Assembly: GCA_963669415.2 (NCBI GenBank)
Contig: CAXXPS010000001.1
Coordinates: 499,614 to 563,613, forward strand
Origin: Rhizobiaceae bacterium
GTDB taxonomy: Bacteria > Pseudomonadota > Alphaproteobacteria > Rhizobiales > Rhizobiaceae
DNA: 64,000 nucleotides
Direction of reading: 5' to 3'
Below are positions 7,440 through 64,000 of this stretch, piece by piece (position 1 is the first letter of the stretch; the number at the start of each line of letters is the position of its first letter). A program made the translations under genes and the position numbers. The notes under the pieces were generated by a model that saw only the letters and a list, made by a program, of their open reading frames with translations, did no database searches and was not told the origin of the DNA.

Positions 7440-9130
7440 GAGTTCCCTGTGACGGACTCGGCGCCATTTGCAATCAATTCGGACACCCTCCGTCGTTCAA
7501 GGCAAGCTGATTAATCACAGTGATTGGAAAGGGCTGGGATTGGAAGGGGCTGGTTGCACTTCGTGGCCTATGGATGGACTTCCAAATTTCTTTCACCAAG
7601 GCCATCAGGACCAAACTATCATCGGAGAAAGGGCTCATTAGGCTGATTTTGTCTCAGTTTATTGCCAATGCGTCTCAATCTTCGTTCGCCCCAAATATCT
7701 TCGTGGGGAATTGCCGTCATGCGCTTGCCAGCTCTGTCGTTGTCTGTGCATTTTCACGGGCGGCGCCGAATTGGCAGCCGTCTGCTGCGACGATGTTGGC
7801 TGTAATTGCAGTTCGGTTATAACCTCAAACCCTTACAGCCTGCAGGATGGAGAAACTCCAGGTTGATTGTAGCGCTCCGAGTCGTTGACCCAACTGTTGT
7901 CAGTCTTCGAATTGAGCACTCTGCAGAACAGAATTTCCAAAACACGATGATGGACGCGAATTCCACATCAGGTTTTTGCCGAAAAGGTAAAACAGGTACG
8001 CCGGGAGCACAGTGGACTTGGTATGTGCTCACTTGCTAAATTCCCTCATCCAAACAACATGACTTACGGCTAACGTCATGGGATGTCGATTATGGGCACA
8101 GAAGTAACAACCGATCAGTTCGATTCAAGACATTTTCCGCCGTCGGCGCGGCTGCAAAAATTTGCGGAACATGTACTTGATTATTCCATGATGAAGGCGC
8201 GGACTTTTGGCGGCATCAATGGCGACAACCCAAACGTTTTTCTGCACGAACGATTTCTCCAAAATGAGATATATTTCTCGTTGCTGGCTTCTTCTGGATT
8301 TATTTCGACTGCCGGTCCGCGAAGATTGGATGCGCGGGCTGGCTCCATCGCGGTTGGTCTATTGAAAAGCGGAAGTGCAGAAATACGTACTGAGAAAGAC
8401 CGTTTCAAACTCAGCGATGGAGACATCTACATCAATGCGACATCCAGTTTTGAATGGACGTTTGCGGAATCCAACGTTGTCCGACTGATATTCCCATCCG
8501 GCACAATCAAGGAACTGCTCCACCGTTCGGGGGAGTTTATCGTATTTCGGAACAACCAACCGGTAACCGAGATACTCAAAGCAACAATTTCGGGATTTGA
8601 GAGTACCCTGCGTGAAGGGAACGCGGCGGCAGTGAACCAAATGGGCCGGCTCGCAGTCGACCTTTCGTCAAGGATTATCGAAGAGCAAATACTGCGGAGC
8701 GCCTTCAGCGGTCATGAAATTATCCGGGAGAGGGCGCGGGAGTATATCCACGACAATTTCGCGTCCACGGACCTCCGGATAGATGAAATCGCCTCCTATG
8801 TCGGCACATCACGATCCACCTTGTACAGATCTTTCGAGGGAATTGGCGGAGTGCGCGAATATATAATGTCAGTCAGGTTAGAGAAGGCCAAACATTTGAT
8901 AGGCTACGCGGAACCGGAGCGAGGCTGGTTATCGAAAATCGCCTTTGCTTGCGGATTTGGCTCAGTCGGTCAGCTAAGCGCTGCTTTCAAAACGCGCTTT
9001 GGCGTTAGTCCAACCGTGTTCAAAAATGTCGATGGGGATGGATAAGTCACGCGATATTCGTTGCTGAGCGAATCTCAATCTGAGACCTGCTGACGCGTTA
9101 CAGAGCAGGGATCGCAGCTGCAACATACTT
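7440..9130. repeat. tandem segmental repeat, unit 1 (leader plus AraC gene plus trailer)
   Basis: Anchors tgacgg (7449), gctgatt (7506) and ggggctggttgcacttcgtgg (about 7548) recur at 9171/9228/9250 and at 10756/10817/10840. Boundaries are approximate. Confidence 0.7.
8083..9045 (+). CDS. AraC family transcriptional regulator (paralogue A)
   Basis: 320 aa with a C-terminal double HTH (IASYVGTSRSTLYRSFEGIGGVREYIMSVRLEKAK ... FGSVGQLSAAFKTRFGVSP). Confidence 0.85.
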   Translation: MSIMGTEVTTDQFDSRHFPPSARLQKFAEHVLDYSMMKARTFGGINGDNPNVFLHERFLQNEIYFSLLASSGFISTAGPRRLDARAGSIAVGLLKSGSAEIRTEKDRFKLSDGDIYINATSSFEWTFAESNVVRLIFPSGTIKELLHRSGEFIVFRNNQPVTEILKATISGFESTLREGNAAAVNQMGRLAVDLSSRIIEEQILRSAFSGHEIIRERAREYIHDNFASTDLRIDEIASYVGTSRSTLYRSFEGIGGVREYIMSVRLEKAKHLIGYAEPERGWLSKIAFACGFGSVGQLSAAFKTRFGVSPTVFKNVDGDG

Positions 9131-53494: not shown

Positions 53495-53877
53495 GGGGAA
53501 ACTCCTTTTCTCCCGTCAGGTTTAGGGTGCAGCATATCATCTGCAGCGGTCATCTCGGTCGTTTACAGGAGGAGAAGAAACAGTGGTTGGCGCGCCGTGC
53601 CCTTGCCGGGGCATCCTATATTCACGCATTCCGGCCGGGCGCCTTTCGTCGGTATACAAGCCCGGGTATGCCATTCCAGTCTCCGGGCCGGCAAATGCCC
53701 GAATGGCCAATTGTCTCCGATTTGAGCGCAATCGGCAAGCGAAAGATTTCGCAAGTCTGTCAATCACCCCGAAATAACAGACAGTCACTGTCTACCAATT
53801 CAAAGCTTATCATCGGTGCGGAATTACATTAAGCTTTGACAAAGCTGCCAAAAAGGCGCTCCGGGGAGGTTATTCAA

Positions 53878-55038
53878 ATGCGATATTTCGGAATAAGAAC
53901 CGCGTTTCTGGCCATACTGTTCACCGCGGTTCTCGGTGCAACCGTGCCCGCAAGCTCGCAAGTCAAGTTCGAGTTCGGGGGCGGGGACCAACTGGCAATC
54001 GCCTATCTGGAGGGCCAGGGTTTTACCGATGTCCGAATAATCGCCAACGAGCTTATCCAGGTTCGCGTGGAGGCCTGCAGAGAAGGGATCAAATATCGCT
54101 TCAAGGTGCGAATTGACGGCAAGATTTTTGACTTGAGGAAGATCGGAACCTGCGGTGCGATCACGGCGCAGCAGGCGCGAAAGATCCTCCGCGATGCCGG
54201 TTATCGCGATATAGAGATATCAGCCAGTGACGGACGCTACATTGCATTTGGCTGCAGAAACGACAGCCGGTTTCGTGTGATTATGCGGCTCAACGGTTCG
54301 ATCGCGCACACAAAGCGGGTCGGTTCGTGCCTGGATGATTTGTCCAGGGGCGAGATTGCGGCGATCCTTCGAAGAGAAGGTTTCGAAGGAATTGAATTTC
54401 AGCAATCCGAACCGCCGAATTTCGTCGTGCACGCCTGTCTCGGACGGGCAAAGTTCCGGCTGACCGTCGACCGGCGTGGAAACATCCTGGACGAAACCAG
54501 AGCTGGTCTTTGTGAGCAAGAAATCGACCCTCGCGATATTCCGGCGATCCTGGCGAAACGGGGCTTTTCACAAATTGACGTGGTCGACGACCGGCTGCCG
54601 CGCTATGTGGCTATCGCTTGCAAGGACGGCAAGCAGATTGAGCTGACGCTTAACCGCTACGGAAAGATCGTCAAAACAAAACGTATCGGCAAATGCGCCA
54701 AGCGTTTGAGCCGTGACGAGATCGTTTCCATCCTGGAAGGTCGTGGTTTCAAGCGGATCAATGTCATCAAGGCCGATGATGACGGATATTCCATTGACGC
54801 CTGCTACAAAGGACGCTTCCTGCGGATGCAGTTCACGATCTATGGAGACTTTGTGTCGGAACGGGATCGCGGAGAGTGCAGATCGCGACGGGTGACGGAA
54901 ATCCTGGACAAGCTCGAAGACGCAGGTGTCAGCAAGCTGGAGATGTATGTCGAAGGCTGCCGCAGGGGGAGGCGGGTCCAGTATCCCATAGATGCACTCG
55001 GAGATCTGGGAAAGCGCAAACGGATCGGCAGTTGCTGA
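53878..55038 (+). CDS. secreted protein built of six tandem PepSY-like modules of about 60 aa, each with a conserved Cys pair
   Basis: A GGGGAGG RBS precedes the start, and the signal peptide is MRYFGIRTAFLAILFTAVLGATVPASSQ. Six repeats each end in ..(K/R)(I/V)G.C (GTC, GSC, GLC, GKC, GEC, GSC), and each has an internal (A/G)C. Confidence 0.55.
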   Translation: MRYFGIRTAFLAILFTAVLGATVPASSQVKFEFGGGDQLAIAYLEGQGFTDVRIIANELIQVRVEACREGIKYRFKVRIDGKIFDLRKIGTCGAITAQQARKILRDAGYRDIEISASDGRYIAFGCRNDSRFRVIMRLNGSIAHTKRVGSCLDDLSRGEIAAILRREGFEGIEFQQSEPPNFVVHACLGRAKFRLTVDRRGNILDETRAGLCEQEIDPRDIPAILAKRGFSQIDVVDDRLPRYVAIACKDGKQIELTLNRYGKIVKTKRIGKCAKRLSRDEIVSILEGRGFKRINVIKADDDGYSIDACYKGRFLRMQFTIYGDFVSERDRGECRSRRVTEILDKLEDAGVSKLEMYVEGCRRGRRVQYPIDALGDLGKRKRIGSC

Positions 55039-55507
55039 ACCGCTCTTGACCAGGCTGCATCGACATTCAGGATTTGGAGCGCGGTTTGAGGCAAAATAGC
55101 CCATATCCCGGGGGGACGCGGCGTATTTCGCCCCCGACATCGTTGAAAAGCCCTTATGGCGATCGGCGCCACTGCGGTCTTTTCGCCTTGTCGGAATCGA
55201 AATCCGGCACGCGCCGCGCCCGAAACATGAATGTCGATACAGCCTAGAATACCGTCGCGTGTGGAAATTCCCACATACAAGGCGAACGCGAAGTGTGAAG
55301 TTGAACAGGGGCTGGTCCAGCACCCGGAAGAGACTTGCCGGGTACCGGACCTGCGTGACCGTGCGGAGGGACCACAGCCATGGAGAACCAGACCAAATAT
55401 TGGACGACATCCAGGACGCTGGGCAACAAAACTGAAATCGCAATTTGCGCTGATTTCCCATCAAGCTGGGTCGTGTTCCCAACGAGCGCCGGACTTTCGA
55501 GGAGAGG

Positions 55508-56221
55508 GTGCGGTTCAAGATTGATCAATTGATGCAATCGGCCCAACAGGGCCTTCCAACCGAACTCAGCCGCATCACCACCATTCATTTTGCCCGGATG
55601 ATCGTCATCCGTCCCGAACAGTATCTGATATATTCGGGACTACCCGGATTTCCAAAGCCGGGCCAGCCGGGATCCGAGGGGCCGCGCTATGGCTTCCGGA
55701 ACATGATTCCGGGACATGAAGAGACGACTTGGGCATTTGATGAATTTGACGACATGCCGGAACATGCGACAAGCGATGGAAGCGCCACCGAGAAGCCCGA
55801 ATTCCGTTCCTGGCTGCTCACTCAGGTGATCTTCGATGGCGATATCAAGGTCTATTTCCGCGATATCGCCGAGTTCATCCAAGACCGGTTCGATGACGTG
55901 TTCTTCAATTGTGAAGATTTTCCGGGTACCGGCAATTTTGAGGCCTATTGGCGCTGGATCCGGCGTTATCAGATTCCCAATGACCTTTTCATGTCGGTCT
56001 ATCCGGATCTTTCGGTTCCGCGGATCAAATATCTGGAAAGTTTCAAGCGCCGTTTCGATGCGTTTGTCGCCCAAGTGCGTTCGCCCACGGGCGATCGATT
56101 GCAGCCGATGGACGAGCTGTTTGACGAGTTTTTGAAACAGAACGAGCAGTTTGGCAGCGGCTTTCCGGCACCGGGGGGTGTTTATGTCGCCGCGGCCTCC
56201 GAGGAGGGGGAAGATTCATGA
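55508..56221 (+). CDS. hypothetical acidic cytoplasmic protein, translationally coupled to the DyP-P450-like gene
   Basis: 237-aa ORF (GTG 55508 or ATG 55532). It has no signal peptide or TM helix. It carries the conspicuous segments TIHFARMIVI and VIFDGDIKVYFRDIAEFI. Its TGA overlaps the next ATG (ATGA at 56218-56221). Confidence 0.55.
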   Translation: MRFKIDQLMQSAQQGLPTELSRITTIHFARMIVIRPEQYLIYSGLPGFPKPGQPGSEGPRYGFRNMIPGHEETTWAFDEFDDMPEHATSDGSATEKPEFRSWLLTQVIFDGDIKVYFRDIAEFIQDRFDDVFFNCEDFPGTGNFEAYWRWIRRYQIPNDLFMSVYPDLSVPRIKYLESFKRRFDAFVAQVRSPTGDRLQPMDELFDEFLKQNEQFGSGFPAPGGVYVAAASEEGEDS

Positions 56222-57078
56222 GCAACATCGTCGACGCACAGGCCAATATCGCACGCGCAATCAAGTATCCGAGCGTCGATGCGCGCAACTGGACGCTCTA
56301 TTTCTTTTTTCGGGTCATGCGCAAAACTGAAACGAAGACGTTTCAGGATTTGCTTGGCCGGCAGCTCAAAGCAGCCGGCGCGACGAAAGTTGCCGGCTCG
56401 CGCGGCAGCATGGGCAAGTCCGGAGATACGGGCGATCAGGGCACGGCGTTTTCATTGGGCGATGCCGTCGAAGCCATCGTCAAGCAGCATGCGGCCTCAC
56501 TCGGCAGCGGTGGCCACAACATAGAGCCGCAAGAGGAATCCGGAGCGAGCGCTATTCCAGGGCAGTGGCCCAATGTTCCAGACGCCAAGAAGCCATCCGG
56601 AGCTTTCCTGGCCTGGCTTCGAATGGTGACGAGTGCCGAGTTCGATACAGAAGCAGACGCAATCGGCGACAAGAAAACCGCCAGTGCCGTCGCTGCTGAA
56701 GTCGGCGGCAAGGTTGACCCTGCATCGATTCACGCGGAACTGAAGAAAGCGCTTTCTTCCAAAACCGCTGGTGCGGAAGCAATGAAGGTGCTGTCGCGGT
56801 TTCCCGAACTGTTGAAGGCCAAGGATGGGCCAGTGAAGGTGGGTACTGCGGTTTTCACCCTGATCCTTACCGGCATGAACTCACCGGCACAGCTCAGCGC
56901 GACATTCCAGGCTTTGGGAAGTATGGGCGGCAGTTTGCAGGAACACTCCAATTCGCCGCGCGATTCCTGTTCGTGTTGTCGGCCTATTTCAAAGTGCTGC
57001 TTTCGAGCCCGGATCTGTTGGCGGCGATTATTGCCAAGTTTGAGAAGAACCCCTCTGCCGCGGGTGCTGCGGCGCTGA
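56218..57078 (+). CDS. N-terminal segment of the DyP-type peroxidase gene (frame 1); probably the 5' part of one interrupted gene
   Basis: The first roughly 45 aa (VDAQANIARAIK...NWTLYFFFRVMRKTETKTFQDLL) resemble the IQG.IL...F.FF.I.....F motif at the N-terminus of class V DyPs. A low-complexity Ala/Gly/Ser/Lys-rich region follows. The last roughly 45 codons are Arg/Cys-rich and look out of frame. Confidence 0.5.
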   Translation: MSNIVDAQANIARAIKYPSVDARNWTLYFFFRVMRKTETKTFQDLLGRQLKAAGATKVAGSRGSMGKSGDTGDQGTAFSLGDAVEAIVKQHAASLGSGGHNIEPQEESGASAIPGQWPNVPDAKKPSGAFLAWLRMVTSAEFDTEADAIGDKKTASAVAAEVGGKVDPASIHAELKKALSSKTAGAEAMKVLSRFPELLKAKDGPVKVGTAVFTLILTGMNSPAQLSATFQALGSMGGSLQEHSNSPRDSCSCCRPISKCCFRARICWRRLLPSLRRTPLPRVLRR

Positions 57079-60000
57079 ATGGCGGTTTGCCGATGATGTG
57101 CCTGTTTGAGATATTCCGCCAGGCCGCGCCATGGGCACGGAAGAAAATCAAGAGCAAGAAACAAGCTGCAGCTTTGAACCCAATGGTAATCTCCGAGGCG
57201 GATCGGGCACGACTCGTAGATGCCTCGAAAGCGGAAACCGATCGCTCCAAAGATTCAATTCCGATCAACATCGCTTTTTCCCATTCCGGGCTGGAGGCGC
57301 TCAGTCTGCACCCGGAGACGCTCCGCTCGTTTCCCGATGTGTTCAAGGAAGGAATGGCTGCCCGCGCCGAGCGCCTCGGCGACACCGGAGCCAGCGCGCC
57401 TGAAAACTGGGATGGTGCACTGGGCCTGAAGAGCATCCATGGCCATTTCAGCAGCCGGTTTGCAATCGGTGATGATGGTGATGTTGCCGATGAAGCGCCG
57501 TGGACGCGCCTGCGCGAAGATATTCGCATGTTCAATTACCGCGCCGGGCCGCGGGGCAAGTTGCTGCGCGCGTTGCTGGCAACCCTGTTCAGGCCGCTTG
57601 GCATGGAGATCATGCATATCGAACTTGGGCAGGACCCTTACAGTGTAGAAGAACGACCCGACGAGGATGGCGGACCGGGTCGCAGGATCATGGTGCCGGA
57701 AAAGTACCGGCGTGAGCATTTCGGTTTCCGTGACGGGATCAGCCAGCCATTCGTCGACATTGGTCTTGCCCCCCCGCCGGCAGGCGGCGGCACGCCGCGC
57801 AGAAACCGGACCTGGGACAGTGTCGCTGCCGGTGAGATATTCATCAGTCAAGAGGATGAGGACGGACATCTTCAAGGCCAGCCCGCCAACGAAATGCTTC
57901 GGGCAGGTGCGACCTATGAAATATTCCGCAAGCTTGAGCAGGATGTGATCGGGTTTCGCAATTTTCTCAAGAGCCAACGGTCCACACCTGACGGCCAGGA
58001 AAAACTGGCTGCCCAGTTCATGGGGCGCTGGAAAGACGGCACTCCGCTTATCGTCTCGCCGGACCACGACATGAATCTCGGCCGGGATCTGGACAGCAAG
58101 ACCAATGATTTTCTCTATGCAAAAGACGATCCGCGTGGAGAGCGTTGTCCGCTGGGGGCGCATATAAGGCGGTCCAATCCGCGCGATATCGGCGGCGGTG
58201 CGGATGCAAAACGCCACCGCATCCTCAGGCGCGGTATTGCCTATGGCGGCTCGCTTCTGCCCGAGGGGTCAAATGGCGACGGCGAGGATCGCGGCCTGCT
58301 ATTCGTCTGCGTGAACTCGCGCATCGACCTGCAATTCGAACTGGTTCAATCCAACTGGATCAACAATGGCGAATTTCTCGGCCAAGCAGGGCTTGGACGT
58401 TGCCCGGTGACGGGCTCAAACAATGGACGCGTCTCCGACCGGTTCTTCGAATCCGGCGCCATTGCCCCAGTCCACCATATTCCCCGTTTTGTCACCACGA
58501 GGGGCGGCGACTATTTCTTCCTGCCTGGCGTCAAGGCGCTGCGGCTCATGGCTCAAGGTGACAAGTTTGAGCCGGATGCTGACTGGAAAGGCGGTGGCTG
58601 GCTGGATGATATCGTCACTCCGTCAATGATCGCCGAAACCCGGATCCGGCGATATGTGGCCCGCATGGTGTTGCTCGACAACAAGGAACGCTCGATTGTC
58701 ATCCGGCCGCCCGAGACCCATTCCGGCGGGACGCTGCCCTATCCGCATCAGATCGAGGAAGACCCGCTTGCCGGTGACCCGATTACGGTTGTCGGGTTGC
58801 ACAAGGACGTCAAAAAGGTTCTCGCCGACAATACCGGCGGAGATTTGCTGTTTTCGGTTCGCAATTATCGCGACGCCTGCCGTCGTGCCACTCGCGGCTA
58901 CGATCTTCTGATCGGCACCGAGCTTGGAACCAAGGTGGAACCGACCCGAAAGCGGCTGCAGGAAGTTTTGAAATTGGTCTGGGCACAGTTCTCCACCCAT
59001 GTCGATTTCCAGGCAGAAATGGCGAAAATCGCCGATAAGAGCATCAATGACGCGATCAACCGGACCAGCCAACGGGGTCAAATTGATCTGGTCCGCGACC
59101 TGGCAACGGACACCGTCTACAATATCGTCTCCGAATTATTTGGTGTCGGCGGACCGAGCTGGCTGACCGAGATTGCCATTGCGCTGCCATTCAAGCGCAA
59201 GCAGGTGGGCGATCTGGAGCGCGACTGGTTGAGCGCCATCAAGCGCGACAAACCGGAAAACCCGAGCCAGATCACCTTGCAGCTCTGGTCTTTGATTTTC
59301 CTTGCCGATCTGGTTGGTAACCAGTTGCGGATGGGTGAATTGAACGAGTTGGCTCGCTCATCGGGGGCCGAGTTCCTGGGTCATTTGGAACTGGAGTTGA
59401 AGAAAGCACGCACGCAAAAACGGACCGATCCGAAAACGCTGTTGGAGATGTTCGTCCATTGTGAGGATGATGCGATCCAAATGGTGCGGAACGCGGCGGG
59501 CTTCGGCGGCAATCCGGACTACTCGGTGGACGACTACTTCATCGACGTGCTGGTGTTGATGCTCGAACTCGTCGGGACTCCGATGTCGGTCATTCCAACC
59601 GCATGGGGTAATGTGATTGGCGGCATACTCAATGCGGGAATTGACCTGCAGAGCATGTTTGCGATCTTCGGCGATCCAGGGCCGGATCCATTTCCTGAGT
59701 TGCCCGGTGGCGGCGGGCGTGAAGCAAGCTGGGTTACGCGGCTTGCCTATGAGGTCGACCGGCTGAATCCCTCGTTCAAGATGTTCCTGCGGCGCAGCGA
59801 ACAGACCAATGTCATCGATGAGGAATTGACGATCGAAAAGGGTCACTGGGTGGCGGCGCTGGCGGTGGCGGCAAACCTCGATAAGGAAGCTTTCCCCGAT
59901 CCCTTTACGTTTTCGCTTGGGGAAAAATTTAACGGTCCACGCCGTGAAATGGGAGACTATCTCATGTTCGGCTCAGCCGGCGGCAATCGCGATTGCTGGG

Positions 60001-60170
60001 GTAGGGACCGGATGGCGCTTTACCTGATCGTTCAGTTCCTCCGCGCTTGTTCCCGGCTGGATGGGTTGCGCAAGGTGGCCGGTCCCGGTGGCGATGCACA
60101 GAAGCTGCTAAAGATCACTATCGGCCAGCCGGCAAGGTTTGCGCGGCAAAGGATCAAAGCAACCGCCTGA
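56973..60170 (+). CDS. DyP-type haem peroxidase fused to a C-terminal cytochrome P450-like domain (frame 0; true 5' end uncertain)
   Basis: DyP motifs: INIAFSHSGLEAL, the GXXDG motif HFGFRDGISQPF (57717-), MGRWKDGTPL, the proximal-His motif CPLGAHIRRSNPRD (His codon 58161), ILRRGIAYG, RGLLFVCVNSRIDLQFELVQSNW, and RGGDYFFLPG. P450 motifs: the K-helix YEVDRLNP (59748-), FPDPFTFSL, and the Cys-ligand loop FGSAGGNRDCWG (Cys codon 59994). Confidence 0.75.
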   Translation: MLSAYFKVLLSSPDLLAAIIAKFEKNPSAAGAAALNGGLPMMCLFEIFRQAAPWARKKIKSKKQAAALNPMVISEADRARLVDASKAETDRSKDSIPINIAFSHSGLEALSLHPETLRSFPDVFKEGMAARAERLGDTGASAPENWDGALGLKSIHGHFSSRFAIGDDGDVADEAPWTRLREDIRMFNYRAGPRGKLLRALLATLFRPLGMEIMHIELGQDPYSVEERPDEDGGPGRRIMVPEKYRREHFGFRDGISQPFVDIGLAPPPAGGGTPRRNRTWDSVAAGEIFISQEDEDGHLQGQPANEMLRAGATYEIFRKLEQDVIGFRNFLKSQRSTPDGQEKLAAQFMGRWKDGTPLIVSPDHDMNLGRDLDSKTNDFLYAKDDPRGERCPLGAHIRRSNPRDIGGGADAKRHRILRRGIAYGGSLLPEGSNGDGEDRGLLFVCVNSRIDLQFELVQSNWINNGEFLGQAGLGRCPVTGSNNGRVSDRFFESGAIAPVHHIPRFVTTRGGDYFFLPGVKALRLMAQGDKFEPDADWKGGGWLDDIVTPSMIAETRIRRYVARMVLLDNKERSIVIRPPETHSGGTLPYPHQIEEDPLAGDPITVVGLHKDVKKVLADNTGGDLLFSVRNYRDACRRATRGYDLLIGTELGTKVEPTRKRLQEVLKLVWAQFSTHVDFQAEMAKIADKSINDAINRTSQRGQIDLVRDLATDTVYNIVSELFGVGGPSWLTEIAIALPFKRKQVGDLERDWLSAIKRDKPENPSQITLQLWSLIFLADLVGNQLRMGELNELARSSGAEFLGHLELELKKARTQKRTDPKTLLEMFVHCEDDAIQMVRNAAGFGGNPDYSVDDYFIDVLVLMLELVGTPMSVIPTAWGNVIGGILNAGIDLQSMFAIFGDPGPDPFPELPGGGGREASWVTRLAYEVDRLNPSFKMFLRRSEQTNVIDEELTIEKGHWVAALAVAANLDKEAFPDPFTFSLGEKFNGPRREMGDYLMFGSAGGNRDCWGRDRMALYLIVQFLRACSRLDGLRKVAGPGGDAQKLLKITIGQPARFARQRIKATA

Positions 60171-60196: not shown

Positions 60197-60697
60197 TCAG
60201 ACCGCGACCCACCCATTCGCCGTCTTCATCCGGTGGGTTATCGTGTTACTGCGGCCGAGCGTTTGTTCGATGAAGCAGCCCTTTTTCGCCGCCTGGATCA
60301 ATTCGGCGACCTTGGCATCCGGATCGTCGCTCTCGATCATGACATCGATCTCAAAGGAGTGCGGTGCGGTTTCGTAGATGCGGCCCTTGGCTTCCCAATT
60401 CCACTGAACCCGCGTCTCGACTTTCAGATCGGTGAGGCTGACGCCCATTCTTTTCGCAAATGCCCTGATCTGGGTCATGATGCAGCCGGTCAAGCCTCCG
60501 ACGAAAAGCGCCAGCGGAGGCGGCGCGCTGGCATCCCCGCCATGAAATGATCCCTCGTCCGTTGCCAACTCGAAAGGACCCTCCTCGAAAGGAAGTTTCA
60601 TCATCACTGCCAGTTCGTTGCGCATCTTGCCGGTCGCATGCCCATTGCAATCAAACTGAACCATCGCCTTTTGCGGCATTCCTGCATTGTCGGTCAT
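60197..60697 (-). CDS. OsmC family peroxiredoxin-like protein
   Basis: 166 aa with the two conserved Cys contexts LTGCIMT and KKGCFIE. Confidence 0.8.
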   Translation of the reverse strand: MTDNAGMPQKAMVQFDCNGHATGKMRNELAVMMKLPFEEGPFELATDEGSFHGGDASAPPPLALFVGGLTGCIMTQIRAFAKRMGVSLTDLKVETRVQWNWEAKGRIYETAPHSFEIDVMIESDDPDAKVAELIQAAKKGCFIEQTLGRSNTITHRMKTANGWVAV

Positions 60698-60700
60698 TGG

Positions 60701-61729
60701 TTATTTATCCTCATTCCAGTGGACCATTGGCTGGCCGGCAACCGGAGCTTCGAACCAGGGGATCATCGTTCCACGCAGGCTGCCAATATAAACCTTGCGC
60801 AGGTCCGGTCCGCCGAAAGTGATGCTTGCCATCCACGGCGCGATGTCACCACCGCAGGCCATCATAAGATCTGGTGTTGCCTCTCCGCGTCCAAACGCTT
60901 CCAGAAGCGCTTTTCCCGCTGCCGAGCCGTGGTCGTCGTCAAGAATGATCCGCAAATCCCCGTCGGGTGTAATCGCAAAAACCCGGTCAGTCATCACATG
61001 GGTGCCCCACAGATTGCCGAACGCGTCAAATGCGATGCCGTCTATGAATGCTCCATGGCTTTCCGGCCCGAAGGTCTCGCGCCCGCTCAGGCTGCCATCG
61101 CTGCCGACGCGAAAACGGGTCACCTTCATCGCTGTTGTTTCGACTGCGTAGAGGAATGCTTCATCAGCATCGAGGCGGATTTCATTGGTGAAAGCCAGCC
61201 CGTCGGCAACAATGCGCAATCCCTTCTCATCGGCCACCGCAATGTATCCGTCGACGATTTTCGTGCGCGCCGCATCCATCCAGTTCGGCACCATGGTCGA
61301 AATCGTCAGCCAGATCCGGTCGAGGCTATCGCGCAGGACGAAATTCACCTTGCCGATCGGTCTGCCATCAATAGTGTCATGGAGCACCTTCGTTTCGCCG
61401 GTGCGCTTCATCACTTCCAGACGATCCGTGCCGAAATTGGAAATCAGGATGTCTCCGTTACGAGCAAATGCCAGTCCGTTTGGCAGCGTGCCTTCTGTGA
61501 AGCGGGAAGCGTCGTCCGTCGCATCGGCAAAGTCTGAACGCTCAGACTGCGTGATGAGCGACTGTGATCCATCAGGCCTGATATGGACGACACCGCCGCG
61601 CGCGTCTGCCGACCATAGCGACCCGTCAGGTTCGGCAAGAATGCATTCCGGCCGTTGCAGGTCGTGGCCAATGGTTTTGATGGACGCAGGATCGACCTCG
61701 AACCCGTCGATCGGGTTTGGAAGGACCAT
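60701..61729 (-). CDS. SMP-30/gluconolactonase/LRE family protein
   Basis: 342 aa. It has six-bladed-propeller-type repeats with PNGLAF, DGIAFD and ECILAEPDGSLW segments. Confidence 0.8.
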   Translation of the reverse strand: MVLPNPIDGFEVDPASIKTIGHDLQRPECILAEPDGSLWSADARGGVVHIRPDGSQSLITQSERSDFADATDDASRFTEGTLPNGLAFARNGDILISNFGTDRLEVMKRTGETKVLHDTIDGRPIGKVNFVLRDSLDRIWLTISTMVPNWMDAARTKIVDGYIAVADEKGLRIVADGLAFTNEIRLDADEAFLYAVETTAMKVTRFRVGSDGSLSGRETFGPESHGAFIDGIAFDAFGNLWGTHVMTDRVFAITPDGDLRIILDDDHGSAAGKALLEAFGRGEATPDLMMACGGDIAPWMASITFGGPDLRKVYIGSLRGTMIPWFEAPVAGQPMVHWNEDK

Positions 61730-62667
61730 CAGAAATTCACCATGTCGCCACCCTTCAGCTGGAGCACTTCACGTGCTTCGGCGGGAGAGGCGATACCAAT
61801 GCCGAGTTCTTCAAGAATGGTTCTGATCTTGGTGACTTGATCGGCGTTGGATTTGGCGAGTTCTCCCTTGCCGATGAACAGCGAATCTTCCAGGCCGACT
61901 CGCACATTGCCGCCCATCATCGCTGCCTGGGTGATAAAGGGCATTTGAAACCGGCCTGCCGCCAGCACCGACCAGACATAATCATCGCCAAACAGCCGGT
62001 CAGCCGTCTGTTTCATGAACATGACGTTTTCCATCTCGGCGCCAATGCCGCCAAGAATGCCGAAAATCGACTGCACCAGAAATGGCGGCTTGACCACGCC
62101 GGCATCAACGAAATGCGCGAGATTATAAAGATGCCCGATGTCGTAACATTCGTGCTCGAACCGGGTACCGCATCCTTCGCCCAGATGTTTCAGAATGTAG
62201 GCGATATCGCGGAACGTGTTGCGAAAAATAAAGTCTTCGCTCGCCTCAAGAAATGGCTTTTCCCAATCGTGTTTCCATTTGTCATATTTGTTCGCCAATG
62301 GATGCAGAGCGAAATTCATCGAACCCATGTTCAGCGATGTCATTTCGGGTTCGGCCTTCAGCGGGCCAGCCAATCGCTCCTCCACCGTCATGCCCAACCC
62401 ACCACCGGTGGTGATGTTGATCACCGCATCACTTGACTGTTTGATCCGCGGCAAGAACTGCATGAACACTTCCGGATCAGGCGTCGGCATGCCGGTCTCC
62501 GGATCGCGTGCATGCAAGTGGATGATTGATGCACCGGCTTCGGCCGCGTCGATGGACTGGCGAGCGATTTCGTCGGGGGTGATTGGCAGCGCGTCCGACA
62601 TGGTCGGCGTGTGCACGCCACCGGTAACTGCGCAGGTGATGATCACTTTTTTCATTTTCTGGGCCAT
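61729..62667 (-). CDS. 3-keto-5-aminohexanoate cleavage enzyme family (BKACE/DUF849) protein
   Basis: It has the family N-terminus KVIITCAVTGGVHTPTMS..LPITPDEIA..AEAGASIIHLHARDPETG. 312 aa. Confidence 0.88.
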   Translation of the reverse strand: MAQKMKKVIITCAVTGGVHTPTMSDALPITPDEIARQSIDAAEAGASIIHLHARDPETGMPTPDPEVFMQFLPRIKQSSDAVINITTGGGLGMTVEERLAGPLKAEPEMTSLNMGSMNFALHPLANKYDKWKHDWEKPFLEASEDFIFRNTFRDIAYILKHLGEGCGTRFEHECYDIGHLYNLAHFVDAGVVKPPFLVQSIFGILGGIGAEMENVMFMKQTADRLFGDDYVWSVLAAGRFQMPFITQAAMMGGNVRVGLEDSLFIGKGELAKSNADQVTKIRTILEELGIGIASPAEAREVLQLKGGDMVNF

Positions 62668-62679
62668 ATCGACGTGCTC

Positions 62680-63456
62680 CTAATCGTTGAATATTGCGAC
62701 GGCGCGGGTGAACCCGGCAGAAGCGTTTTTGATCTTCCAGGGAAAGCAGGAAATCTCGAATCCGGTCGCAGGCAGCGTTTCGAGATTGGATAGTTTCTCG
62801 ATGTGGCAGTAACCGATCTCCATGCCGGCGCGATGACCTTCCCAGATGATGGAGGGATCGCCATTCTTGGCAAATTCCTTGGCGGTAAACGCGAACGGCG
62901 CATCCCAGCTCCAGGCGTCGGTTCCCGTGACACGAACGCCACGTTCGAGCAGATACAATGTGGCCTCGCGGCCCATGCCGCACCCTTTCATCAGATAGTC
63001 GTCCATGCCGTAATGGGCGCCGGCAGAGGTGTTGACGACCACGATGTCAAGCGGTTGCAATTCGTGGCCGATACGCTTGAGCTCCGCTTCGACATCATCA
63101 GCGCTGACAACATAGCCGTCTTCGAACTCACGAAAATCCAGCTTCACGCCCGGATTGAAGCACCACTCCAGCGGGACTTCGTCGATGGTGATCGCGCGCT
63201 CACCATTGTTCATGGTCGAGTGATAGTGATACGGCGCATCGAGATGCGTCCCGTTGTGGGTCGCGATCTGCAGCATCTCGACAGCCCATCCCTCTCCACC
63301 CGGCAACTGGTCCTTGGTCAGGCCCGGAAAGAACTGCATTACCTGTTCAGCCGATTGCTGATGGTCGATATAGGTGATGCCCGGAAGCATCGGCGGTGGA
63401 TCGGAGATGATATCGGCTTCCAGCGCAACGGAAAGATCGACAATTCTGCGCGGCAT
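62680..63456 (-). CDS. cyclase family protein (kynurenine formamidase-like metal hydrolase)
   Basis: 258 aa from MPRRIVDLS. It has the metal motif HNGTHLDAPYHY and a later DIVVVNT segment. An AAGGAA RBS precedes the start. Confidence 0.8.
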   Translation of the reverse strand: MPRRIVDLSVALEADIISDPPPMLPGITYIDHQQSAEQVMQFFPGLTKDQLPGGEGWAVEMLQIATHNGTHLDAPYHYHSTMNNGERAITIDEVPLEWCFNPGVKLDFREFEDGYVVSADDVEAELKRIGHELQPLDIVVVNTSAGAHYGMDDYLMKGCGMGREATLYLLERGVRVTGTDAWSWDAPFAFTAKEFAKNGDPSIIWEGHRAGMEIGYCHIEKLSNLETLPATGFEISCFPWKIKNASAGFTRAVAIFND

Positions 63457-63472
63457 ATTCTGATTTCCTTCT

Positions 63473-64000
63473 CTACAATAGTGCGGTTGCAAGCGCCGGG
63501 AATGCGAGCACGGCAATCAGGACAATCAACATCATCAGCGCAAAGGGCGCTGCCCCGGCAAAGATGTCGCCAAGTGTGATCGACGGATCGTCCAGCGATG
63601 ATTTGATAACAAAGACGGAAATACCGAATGGCGGCGTCAGCAGGCCGATTTCAACGGCCAGAACGGTCACGATTCCAAACCAGATCAAGTCGACCTGCAT
63701 GGAAGAGATTACCGGCAGCATCAACGGTACCAAAATCAGCATGATGGATGATGAGTCCAAAATTGTGCCCATCAGGATGACGAGCAACACATAAGCGAAG
63801 ATCACACCCCAAAATCCGATATCGGCGGTGGCGACAAATGTGCCGAACCCGGCAGGAACGCCGGAAAGCGCCAGCATGCGTGAATACATCTGCGCTGCGA
63901 TGATCAGGAAGCAGATCGATGCGGTGACCAGTCCGGTGTCGTTCAGGACCTGCCAGAAATCGGCCCATTTGAGCCGGCGTTTGCCGAGACCAATCAATAT
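63473..64000 (-). CDS. TRAP transporter large permease (DctM family), C-terminal part (5' end outside window)
   Basis: It has the hydrophobic C-terminus GTILDSSSIMLILVPLMLPV ... LLTPPFGISVF typical of DctM. The frame is open to the window edge. Confidence 0.85.
   Translation of the reverse strand: MLIGLGKRRLKWADFWQVLNDTGLVTASICFLIIAAQMYSRMLALSGVPAGFGTFVATADIGFWGVIFAYVLLVILMGTILDSSSIMLILVPLMLPVISSMQVDLIWFGIVTVLAVEIGLLTPPFGISVFVIKSSLDDPSITLGDIFAGAAPFALMMLIVLIAVLAFPALATALL

Follow-up and report, generated by a model that had tools for sequence, protein, structure and literature searches.

What does a bacterial protein that joins two haem-enzyme folds in one chain do, and does it act alone? The question is raised by a stretch of 64,000 nucleotides from a Rhizobiaceae bacterium (assembly GCA_963669415.2, contig CAXXPS010000001.1, positions 499,614 to 563,613 of the forward strand; hereafter the window), in which the forward-strand gene at 56218..60170 encodes an N-terminal dye-decolourising peroxidase (DyP) and a C-terminal cytochrome P450. 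A first-pass annotation, made from the letters of the sequence, had noticed this fusion and suggested that it could be a self-contained two-haem machine. We find instead that the fusion gene is preceded by the gene of a third protein, here called IHFARW, and that P450, IHFARW and DyP obligately co-occur, whether encoded by separate genes, with DyP fused to P450, or with all three fused in the order P450-IHFARW-DyP. The two genes of the window probably form an operon of a conserved system, found mainly in Alphaproteobacteria, in which a peroxide-driven two-haem fusion and its partner would be placed under cyclic-nucleotide control.

The fusion gene

On the forward strand, the interval 56218..60170 contains two open reading frames (ORFs) that overlap and differ in frame: 56218..57078 (286 aa) and 56973..60170 (1065 aa). 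It had been read as a single frame; DyP and P450 do share the ORF 56973..60170, but the ORF 56218..57078 lies in another. The true start of the fusion gene is 56218, because the first strand and helix of the DyP domain are encoded there, and the ATG at that position overlaps the stop codon of the partner gene (ATGA). The 286-aa ORF is 82% identical to residues 1–245 of the intact ortholog P0002 (1317 aa), and the 1065-aa ORF is 91% identical to the same protein. When one C is restored at 56948 the frames join into a conceptual product of 1317 aa with zero internal stops. The junction sequence of a second intact ortholog, P0242 (also 1317 aa, and in the same cluster as the window protein at ≥90% identity), is identical to this reconstruction, and homologs of the fusion gene encode proteins of 1155–1460 aa.

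The fusion protein is a cytoplasmic protein of 1317 aa with two predicted haem domains. Neither it nor the short form of the partner has a convincing transmembrane segment. Membrane anchoring of the fusion was considered and rejected, clear transmembrane helices being found only in unfused partners of 420–704 aa.

The N-terminal domain is assigned to class V DyPs

The DyP domain occupies 56218..58571 on the forward strand and was delimited by Pfam, NCBIfam and PDB matches and by an alignment with unfused DyPs. The 1065-aa ORF matches the Pfam families DyP_N (PF21105; 35.5 bits, cut-off 27.5) and Dyp_perox_C (PF20628; 21.9 bits, cut-off 20), and NCBIfam TIGR01413 with an E value of 1.2e-27, its score of 97.1 falling just under the cut-off of 100.5. 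Its best sequence match in the PDB is Deinococcus radiodurans DrDyP (8RE3/8RE2, E 2.8e-47); further matches include an ancestral D-type enzyme (7ANV), Bjerkandera DyP (2D3Q), Amycolatopsis DyP2 (4G2C) and Anabaena AnaPX (5C2I). The top 20 PDB matches are all class C/D enzymes, with E values from 2.8e-47 to 1e-20, and EfeB/YcdB-type (class A/I) enzymes reach just ~1e-4. Judged by these sequence comparisons, the DyP assignment is far beyond chance. They uphold the proposal of a long C/D-type, class V enzyme; the label "fungal-type" attached to it holds as far as the class goes, though among solved structures the closest is that of a bacterial C-type enzyme, DrDyP. No match to an animal haem peroxidase was found in the N-terminal domain with Pfam, even at E ≤ 1.

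The pocket of DrDyP, a class C and hence class V enzyme, is formed by H324, D189, R348, L373 and F375 (PMC10820274). The window residues aligned to all five are identical, which makes the pocket complete, and they are nearly invariant in 120 homologs. FGFRDG (57720-57737), the GXXDG motif with the distal Asp, aligns to D189, HRILRRG to R348, and GAHIRRSNPRD, which includes the proximal-His motif AHIRRSNPR (58158-58184), to H324. The DyP motifs RRGIAYG (58227-58247) and LLFVCVN...SNW (58296-58358) and the C-terminal block GGDYFFLP (58503-58526) lie downstream on the same strand. All the motifs quoted in the first-pass annotation, for this domain and for the next, were found at the positions it gave within the ORF 56973..60170.

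The domain begins earlier than residue ~95 of that ORF, where it had been placed. In the alignment with unfused DyPs, strand 1 (AQANIARAIKY..WTLYFFFRV) and helix 1 (AFLAWLRMV) are encoded in the 56218 ORF. Two lineage-specific insertions, at conceptual residues ~45-125 and ~140-345, together contribute ~290 residues. A complete two-lobe ferredoxin-like DyP fold within one intact gene is absent from the window, where the 1-bp deletion at 56948 interrupts it; P0242 and P0002, both intact, have it.

The C-terminal half is a divergent P450

The P450 domain, delimited by AlphaFold2 (AF2), Foldseek and a family profile, lies at 58572..60167 on the forward strand, a linker of ~20 residues included. 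The profile search that had been suggested for the whole product divided: the DyP profiles scored above their cut-offs, but PF00067 gave 21.5 bits against a cut-off of 22.8 and covered residues 927–1011 only of the window protein. Many homologs carry a precomputed PF00067 match.

The structural comparisons gave a clearer answer. An AF2 model of ORF residues 534–1065, built with 93 sequences, has a mean predicted local distance difference test score (pLDDT) of 89.4 and a predicted template modelling score (pTM) of 0.90. Foldseek matched it to more than 1,650 P450 chains in the PDB at E ≤ 1e-3, and the top 50 matches are all P450s. The best of them (CYP134A1/CYPX, CalO2, P450BioI and CYP109) have a target-normalised template modelling (TM) score of about 0.72 and 12–19% identity. 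A profile of fused and unfused relatives matched 582 PDB P450 sequences, with a best E value of 1.3e-25 for CYP125MRCA. The P450 topology claimed for this region is therefore borne out by the model and its structural matches. We conclude that the C-terminal half is predicted to be a genuine, divergent P450 fold, the case for which is weak by single sequence and solid by structure and profile.

The residues expected around a haem are retained. In model numbering, E394 and R397 (ExxR), R407, R458 (the PERF Arg), C475 and G477 are invariant in fused and unfused relatives, and R473 is invariant or nearly so; R407 occupies the position of the haem-propionate Arg in ExxRxxPxxxxxxR. On the forward strand of the window, the K-helix ExxR (EVDR, 59751..59762) would form the ERR triad with Arg991 of GPRRE (59934-59948), and FPDPFTF (59892-59912) falls in the PERF/meander region. 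The Cys pocket FGSAGGNRDCWGRDRMAL (59967..60020) contains Cys1008 (59994-59996; C475 of the model), the predicted haem thiolate ligand, with Arg1006 at Cys-2. Cys1008 stands directly before the predicted L helix, which starts at model residue 478, and aligns to the ligand Cys of CYP125MRCA. Its invariance, its place in this loop and the presence of the ExxR/PERF triad support a position in the haem pocket, as had been supposed, to the extent that the model is followed. The Phe-to-Cys spacing had been described as one residue longer than canonical and as informative; it is 9, two above the common 7, and is the same in the bona fide P450 CYP125MRCA. Loop length also varies widely inside the family, and the long Cys loop was rejected as a diagnostic deviation.

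The predicted I helix (59526..59633, forward strand) departs from the canonical pattern, as first noted. The segment ELVGTPMSV, which had been quoted as the presumed I helix, was confirmed at 59565-59591. The acid of the acid-alcohol pair is absent: its position aligns to Pro875 or Thr876 of VIPTAWG, the family consensus is IPxTFG, and Pro875 (P342 in model numbering) is kept in at least 90% of homologs. The pair (A/G)Gx(D/E)T used for O2 activation was not found in the fused P450; the unfused relatives in Bacteroidota and Acidobacteriota retain it as ETT/DTT. By these alignments the P450 domain appears to keep the thiolate Cys, the haem-propionate Arg residues and the ERR triad without the I-helix acid needed for O2 activation. 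It also carries an insertion of ~36 residues after FGVPGP.

A phmmer search with the P450 half against 1.84 billion cluster representatives returned 138 relatives at E ≤ 1e-3, of which 62 were at E ≤ 1e-30. Nearly all the full-length ones are DyP fusions of 1000–1360 aa, so that by sequence the P450 clade appears narrow and almost solely DyP-fused. Several variants were seen. A Rhodospirillaceae fusion (locus L015, 8210-11230) is shorter (1007 aa), has the canonical Cys pocket FGYGPHACRG and may stand midway between canonical and divergent forms of the fused P450. Unfused P450s in L016 (8324-10435) and L021 (8519-10420) have an N-terminal glutathione S-transferase (GST)-like domain with GST_C matches, together with ETT/DTT and FGxGxHxCxG. 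Separate P450-like ORFs several kb from the fusion in L009 (3-1517, reverse strand, 505 aa) and L011 (18999-20348, forward strand, 450 aa), matched after iterated search only, are probably ordinary P450s.

A third protein and a regulatory pair accompany the fusion

The partner gene lies at 55380..56221 on the forward strand and encodes ~278 aa when intact; the copy in the window is disrupted, and intact orthologs are present in L022 and L001. We coined the name IHFARW from a TIHFARM/W motif. No Pfam or NCBIfam family matched the protein, and its 379 homologs are all annotated as hypothetical, none with a Pfam domain. Two of its residues, His68 and Cys171, are almost invariant. The intact ortholog P0121 was modelled with AF2 (pLDDT 74.6), and the model has a beta-alpha-beta...beta-alpha core along with a disordered insert and helices at the C terminus. 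A Foldseek search of the PDB gave no significant match (all E ≥ 0.4); several of the top-ranked weak matches are small dimeric alpha+beta-barrel/ferredoxin-like proteins, and in the model the core looks ferredoxin-like. Forms of 420 aa are tandem repeats of the module with a transmembrane helix between them.

Gene neighbourhoods were compared across 22 loci, at least 15 of them from a scan of genome contigs; some, namely L001, L002, L022 and the window, are closely related. In each of the 16 fused loci, the window counted, the gene immediately before the fusion encodes an IHFARW homolog of ~250–320 aa. In L017 (Tardiphaga) and L019 (an alphaproteobacterial metagenome-assembled genome, MAG) the order is crp, P450, IHFARW, DyP, followed by a convergent cyclase-TPR gene, and IHFARW is a multi-transmembrane protein of 670–700 aa. 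In L016 (Segetibacter) and L021 (a Blastocatellia MAG) the order is GST-P450, IHFARW (420 aa), DyP. A Gemmatimonadaceae contig (L020) has a DyP-P450 fusion. A Mesorhizobium MAG (L018, 9080-13234) encodes all three modules in one protein of 1385 aa, P450(50-433)-IHFARW(445-634)-transmembrane segment-IHFARW(706-896)-DyP(950-1381); on its flanks lie a Crp-like gene and a gene for a 596-aa cyclase-TPR protein without an AAA domain. The occurrence of three fusion topologies, with adjacency kept throughout, argues strongly at the genomic level for cooperation of P450, IHFARW and DyP. The idea of a self-contained fusion is contradicted by the partner found in every fused locus and fused between P450 and DyP in one lineage.

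The set is also tightly linked to two signalling genes. A gene of ~980 aa for a class III cyclase-AAA_16/STAND-TPR protein lies directly downstream in all 12 fused loci whose flank is long enough, 11 times in convergent orientation. A Crp-like regulator gene (cNMP_binding plus HTH_Crp_2) is no more than a few kb away in 10 loci. In seven annotated loci, no gene called within 8–10 kb encodes a ferredoxin or ferredoxin reductase, in line with the first-pass remark that no redox partner is nearby.

Other genes vary with the lineage. In that of the window, a block of ~8 kb (OsmC, SGL/gluconolactonase-like, BKACE, a kynurenine-formamidase-like PF04199 cyclase, a DctPQM TRAP transporter and TetR) stands between the fusion and the crp/cyclase-TPR pair, at 60197-64000 on the reverse strand of the window, 13985-21559 in L001 and 13981-21556 in L022; the window ends before the cyclase. 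The block looks like an insertion into the system, because the fusion and the crp/cyclase genes are directly adjacent in most other loci. Upstream of the operon, at 53836-55038 on the forward strand, a 400-aa ORF consists of about five ~70-aa repeats, in each of which Cys, Gly and Arg positions are conserved, and has a weak PepSY_2 match (E 2e-6); it holds the same place in L001, L002 and L022 and was not detected in the other loci searched. In L021 (13174-17476) the cassette is followed by a TIR-PNP_UDP protein (PADLOC PDC-M60C and ThsB-like matches) and a 950-aa STAND-TPR protein without a cyclase domain, and thus a nucleotide-signal-generating enzyme and a STAND-TPR protein are found near the cassette outside Proteobacteria too. 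A role as an anti-phage defence system was considered and rejected: PADLOC-DB gave no match for P450, DyP or IHFARW and generic cyclase/cNMP-binding similarities only for their neighbours, and the TIR-PNP and STAND genes occur in that one Acidobacteriota locus only.

A candidate operator precedes the operon

A Crp/Fnr-type palindrome, TGTGGAAATTCCCACA, lies at 55260..55275, ~105 bp before the ATG of the partner gene, and is a candidate site for the Crp-like regulator. It is the sole match to TGTGR-N6-YCACA in the 64-kb window, where 0.2 are expected. The box stands upstream of the operon in L001, L002, L022 and L003, in the last as the perfect TGTGAGATTTCTCACA. It recurs in the crp-cyclase intergenic region (L001 and L022) and upstream of crp (L009 and L019). 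These positions suggest that the operon may be an output of the neighbouring cyclic-nucleotide pathway.

What the system may do

Our best guess is that the system carries out a peroxide-driven oxidation without a redox partner, under cyclic-nucleotide control. Both haems would be driven by peroxide and not by electrons derived from NAD(P)H. For the P450 this would mean a role as peroxygenase or peroxide-transforming enzyme; the DyP would oxidise the P450's substrate or its product by one electron at a time. IHFARW would serve as a required subunit, carrier or chaperone. Transcription would be switched on by the Crp-like protein, bound to a cyclic nucleotide, through the TGTGR-N6-YCACA box.

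Several points weigh against this reading. We infer its haem binding, stoichiometry, peroxide use and substrate. The ETT/DTT of the P450s in Bacteroidota and Acidobacteriota means that, by sequence, loss of O2 activation would not be system-wide. The fold assigned to IHFARW from its model is weak, given the Foldseek E values and pLDDT reported above (≥ 0.4 and 74.6). The cyclase gene is usually convergent to the operon rather than co-transcribed with it, and is linked by position only, and the Crp box was seen in just about half of the loci. The frameshifts of the window copy, discussed below, could be sequencing or assembly errors, and dN/dS (the ratio of nonsynonymous to synonymous substitution rates) is so far without relaxation.

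A bolder version goes further and is, in our view, only tentatively to be entertained: P450, IHFARW and DyP would form a three-component haem enzyme complex, not recognised before, that produces or removes a small signalling molecule within a cyclic-nucleotide circuit dedicated to it. This molecule would be sensed by the STAND-TPR cyclase, the response would come from the Crp-like factor, and the box before the operon would close the loop. IHFARW would then be a new ferredoxin-like fold that handles a cofactor or substrate, and the fusion a two-haem peroxide-driven catalyst with a chemistry unseen in either parent family.

Sensing and haem handling are weaker rivals to the peroxide-driven reading. 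The P450 domain could be a haem-thiolate sensor or regulator of gas, redox state or peroxide that gates the DyP or signals to the STAND cyclase. The tight link to the cyclic-nucleotide signalling pair, the loss of the O2-activation residue and the narrow, nearly always fused P450 clade would all suit such a role. We consider it unlikely, since the P450 fold is complete, with a long I helix and substrate-side elements under purifying selection (dN/dS 0.09), and its non-alphaproteobacterial relatives have the canonical catalytic motifs ETT/DTT and FGxGxHxCxG; moreover, we know of no sensor based on a P450 fold.

Little more can be said for the oxylipin-type chemistry proposed in the first-pass annotation, by which a self-contained machine like the fungal Ppo/linoleate diol synthases would make a fatty-acid hydroperoxide and isomerise it in the P450; we rate this, too, as improbable. 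The layout fits, with an N-terminal peroxidase-type domain, a C-terminal P450 without the I-helix acid and no reductase nearby. So does the fusion of the P450 to a GST-like domain in Bacteroidota and Acidobacteriota, GST-fold proteins being able to handle organic peroxides. However, DyPs consume H2O2 and abstract single electrons, and to our knowledge they neither dioxygenate fatty acids as the cyclooxygenase-like Ppo domain does nor make hydroperoxides, which on general grounds counts against this rival. No lipoxygenase, dioxygenase or lipase is conserved in the neighbourhoods examined, and the system encodes a third protein and is not self-contained. The 50 top listed Foldseek neighbours of the P450 model are almost all bacterial and include no CYP74, CYP5/8 or Ppo P450.

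The least probable alternative is a role in haem or tetrapyrrole handling, such as release of iron from haem, oxidation of porphyrins or breakdown of haem, with an IsdG/HemQ-like partner and an EfeB/YfeX-like DyP. The dimeric alpha+beta-barrel/ferredoxin-like fold includes haem-degrading and coprohaem-processing enzymes, and proteins of this fold among the partner's top-ranked Foldseek matches point weakly that way, as do its nearly invariant His68 and Cys171. A link of some DyPs (EfeB and YfeX) to haem or porphyrin chemistry has been made (PMC3215433) and adds to this case, and in L003 the system sits among cobalamin genes. We consider it very unlikely, since the DyP is of class V, with EfeB-type matches of just E ~1e-4, the surroundings show no conserved genes for haem or iron transport, L003 is the only locus with the cobalamin context, and the partner's fold match is not significant.

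Both genes of the window copy carry frame-disrupting indels

On the forward strand, a CCC run in the fusion gene is reduced to CC by a 1-bp deletion (56947..56948), which splits strand 1 and helix 1 of the DyP from the remaining protein; the frameshift thus falls inside the DyP domain, as those two elements are encoded in the 56218 ORF. In the partner gene, alignments to L001 and L022 identify a 5-bp insertion, TGATT (55451..55455, forward strand), that shifts the frame, which picks up again as the ORF 55508..56221. When the 5 bp are removed, an 837-nt partner ORF results whose first 60 residues are the same as those of L022. In L022, a same-species relative that is 98–99% identical, both operon genes are intact. 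These two are the only uncompensated indels between the window and L022 in 17.7 kb, and both lie within this operon; the comparison with L001 (86–90% identity) again gave no further uncompensated coding indel in about 17.5–17.7 kb. In the intergenic region 55038-55380, at ~55098 and ~280 bp before the partner ATG, the window lacks ~76 bp that are present in L022 at 8812-8886. This absence is a third lineage-specific change at the operon, beside both frameshifts.

The dN/dS estimates are low: 0.10–0.18 for the fusion gene, 0.05–0.10 for its DyP part, 0.09–0.22 for its P450 part and 0.06 for the upstream gene. Both haem domains are thus under purifying selection. The family is therefore constrained, and the lesions are either very recent or errors.

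We think it rather likely that the window copy of both genes has truly been inactivated, because there are two lesions in one operon and one of them is a 5-bp insertion. That both frameshifts are sequencing or assembly errors, and that the organism's operon is intact and functional, is a serious though less probable alternative. One of the indels removes a single base from a CCC run, dN/dS is still low (0.06–0.18) when measured against the same-species relative, and the ORFs are perfect once the bases are restored. Yet the sole two uncompensated indels in 17.7 kb at 98–99% identity are both inside the 4.8-kb operon, a 5-bp insertion is not typical of homopolymer error, and the ~76-bp difference too is situated 5' of this operon. 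Generally poor assembly as the cause is unsupported by the comparisons with L001 and L022, which show no other uncompensated coding indel. A programmed frameshift at 56948 was rejected, as all homologs, including the 98–99% identical one, have a single ORF.

Distribution and significance

The fusion protein has 814 database matches at E ≤ 0.001, DyP-only proteins included, and almost all of the best 120 clusters at 90% identity are full-length proteins of 1150–1460 aa. Carriers include Hoeflea, Mesorhizobium, Nitratireductor, Bradyrhizobium, Reyranella, Sphingomonas and Caulobacter-type genomes. A survey of genomes for the architecture, which had been recommended, shows that it is uncharacterised but neither rare nor unannotated: hundreds of entries are labelled automatically, for instance as "Dyp-type peroxidase family" or "EfeB/cytochrome P450". 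We found no description or characterisation of a natural DyP-P450 fusion or of this gene set in the full text of 7.7 million PMC papers and bioRxiv, a scope outside which most subscription journals lie; this agrees with the first-pass statement that no characterised fusion of the kind was known. Peroxidase-P450 two-haem fusions and class V DyPs as such are already known, and what is newly recognised is the third obligatory module and the cyclic-nucleotide regulatory pair.

DyPs and P450s have been heavily studied, yet for most bacterial DyPs no physiological role is known. Three linked modules, three independent fusion topologies, purifying selection on the DyP and the P450, and a regulatory pair with a candidate operator turn an odd single gene into a testable system. 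Its chemistry, once worked out, could reveal the physiological substrate of class V bacterial DyPs and show a new way to run a P450 without reductase partners, which is of interest for biocatalysis. It could also give a function to an unannotated protein family, IHFARW, and identify an output for one of the numerous orphan cyclases of the STAND type in Rhizobiales and relatives.

Comparison with known systems

The DyP half shares with bacterial C-type and fungal D-type DyPs the GXXDG Asp, the proximal His, the distal Arg, the Leu/Phe pocket and the GGDYFF block. Unlike known class V DyPs, it carries the ~290 extra residues in two blocks, situated in its N-terminal ferredoxin-like half, and is accompanied by a C-terminal P450, a dedicated partner protein and cyclic-nucleotide regulators.

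The P450 half shares the ExxR, the PERF Arg, the propionate Arg and the Cys loop with bacterial class I P450s (CYP134A1/CYPX, CalO2, P450BioI, CYP109 and CYP125). It differs from them in its 12–19% identity, in the ~36-residue insertion, in the replacement of the I-helix acid together with a conserved Pro, and in having no ferredoxin or reductase. The best 50 Foldseek and best 60 profile matches are almost all bacterial P450s, human CYP2D6 being the exception, and no CYP74, CYP5 or CYP8 occurs among the best 50 Foldseek and the best 60 of the 582 profile matches. The CYP152 enzymes (P450BSbeta and OleT) are driven by H2O2 without redox partners and have an Arg-Pro in the I helix instead of the acid-alcohol pair. 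The fused P450 likewise has a conserved I-helix Pro and no redox-partner genes, but the residue before the Pro is Ile or Val and not the carboxylate-binding Arg; no CYP152 structure is among the top 50 Foldseek neighbours listed.

As a two-haem protein, the fusion resembles the fungal Ppo/linoleate diol synthases, in which a single chain likewise begins with a peroxidase-type haem domain and ends with a P450. The Ppo P450 works without a reductase partner and acts as a hydroperoxide isomerase. The domain order of linoleate diol synthase, a peroxidase fused to a C-terminal P450, is documented (PMC4420034). In contrast to Ppo, whose peroxidase domain is of the peroxidase-cyclooxygenase superfamily, the fusion has a DyP, from an unrelated superfamily; its host is a bacterium and a third protein is obligatory. 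P450 BM3 and the CYP116B-type enzymes are also natural single-chain P450 fusions, and CYP116B46 (6KBH, 6LDL) is among the structural matches; their fused partner is a reductase that supplies electrons from NAD(P)H, whereas here it is a second haem protein, a peroxidase.

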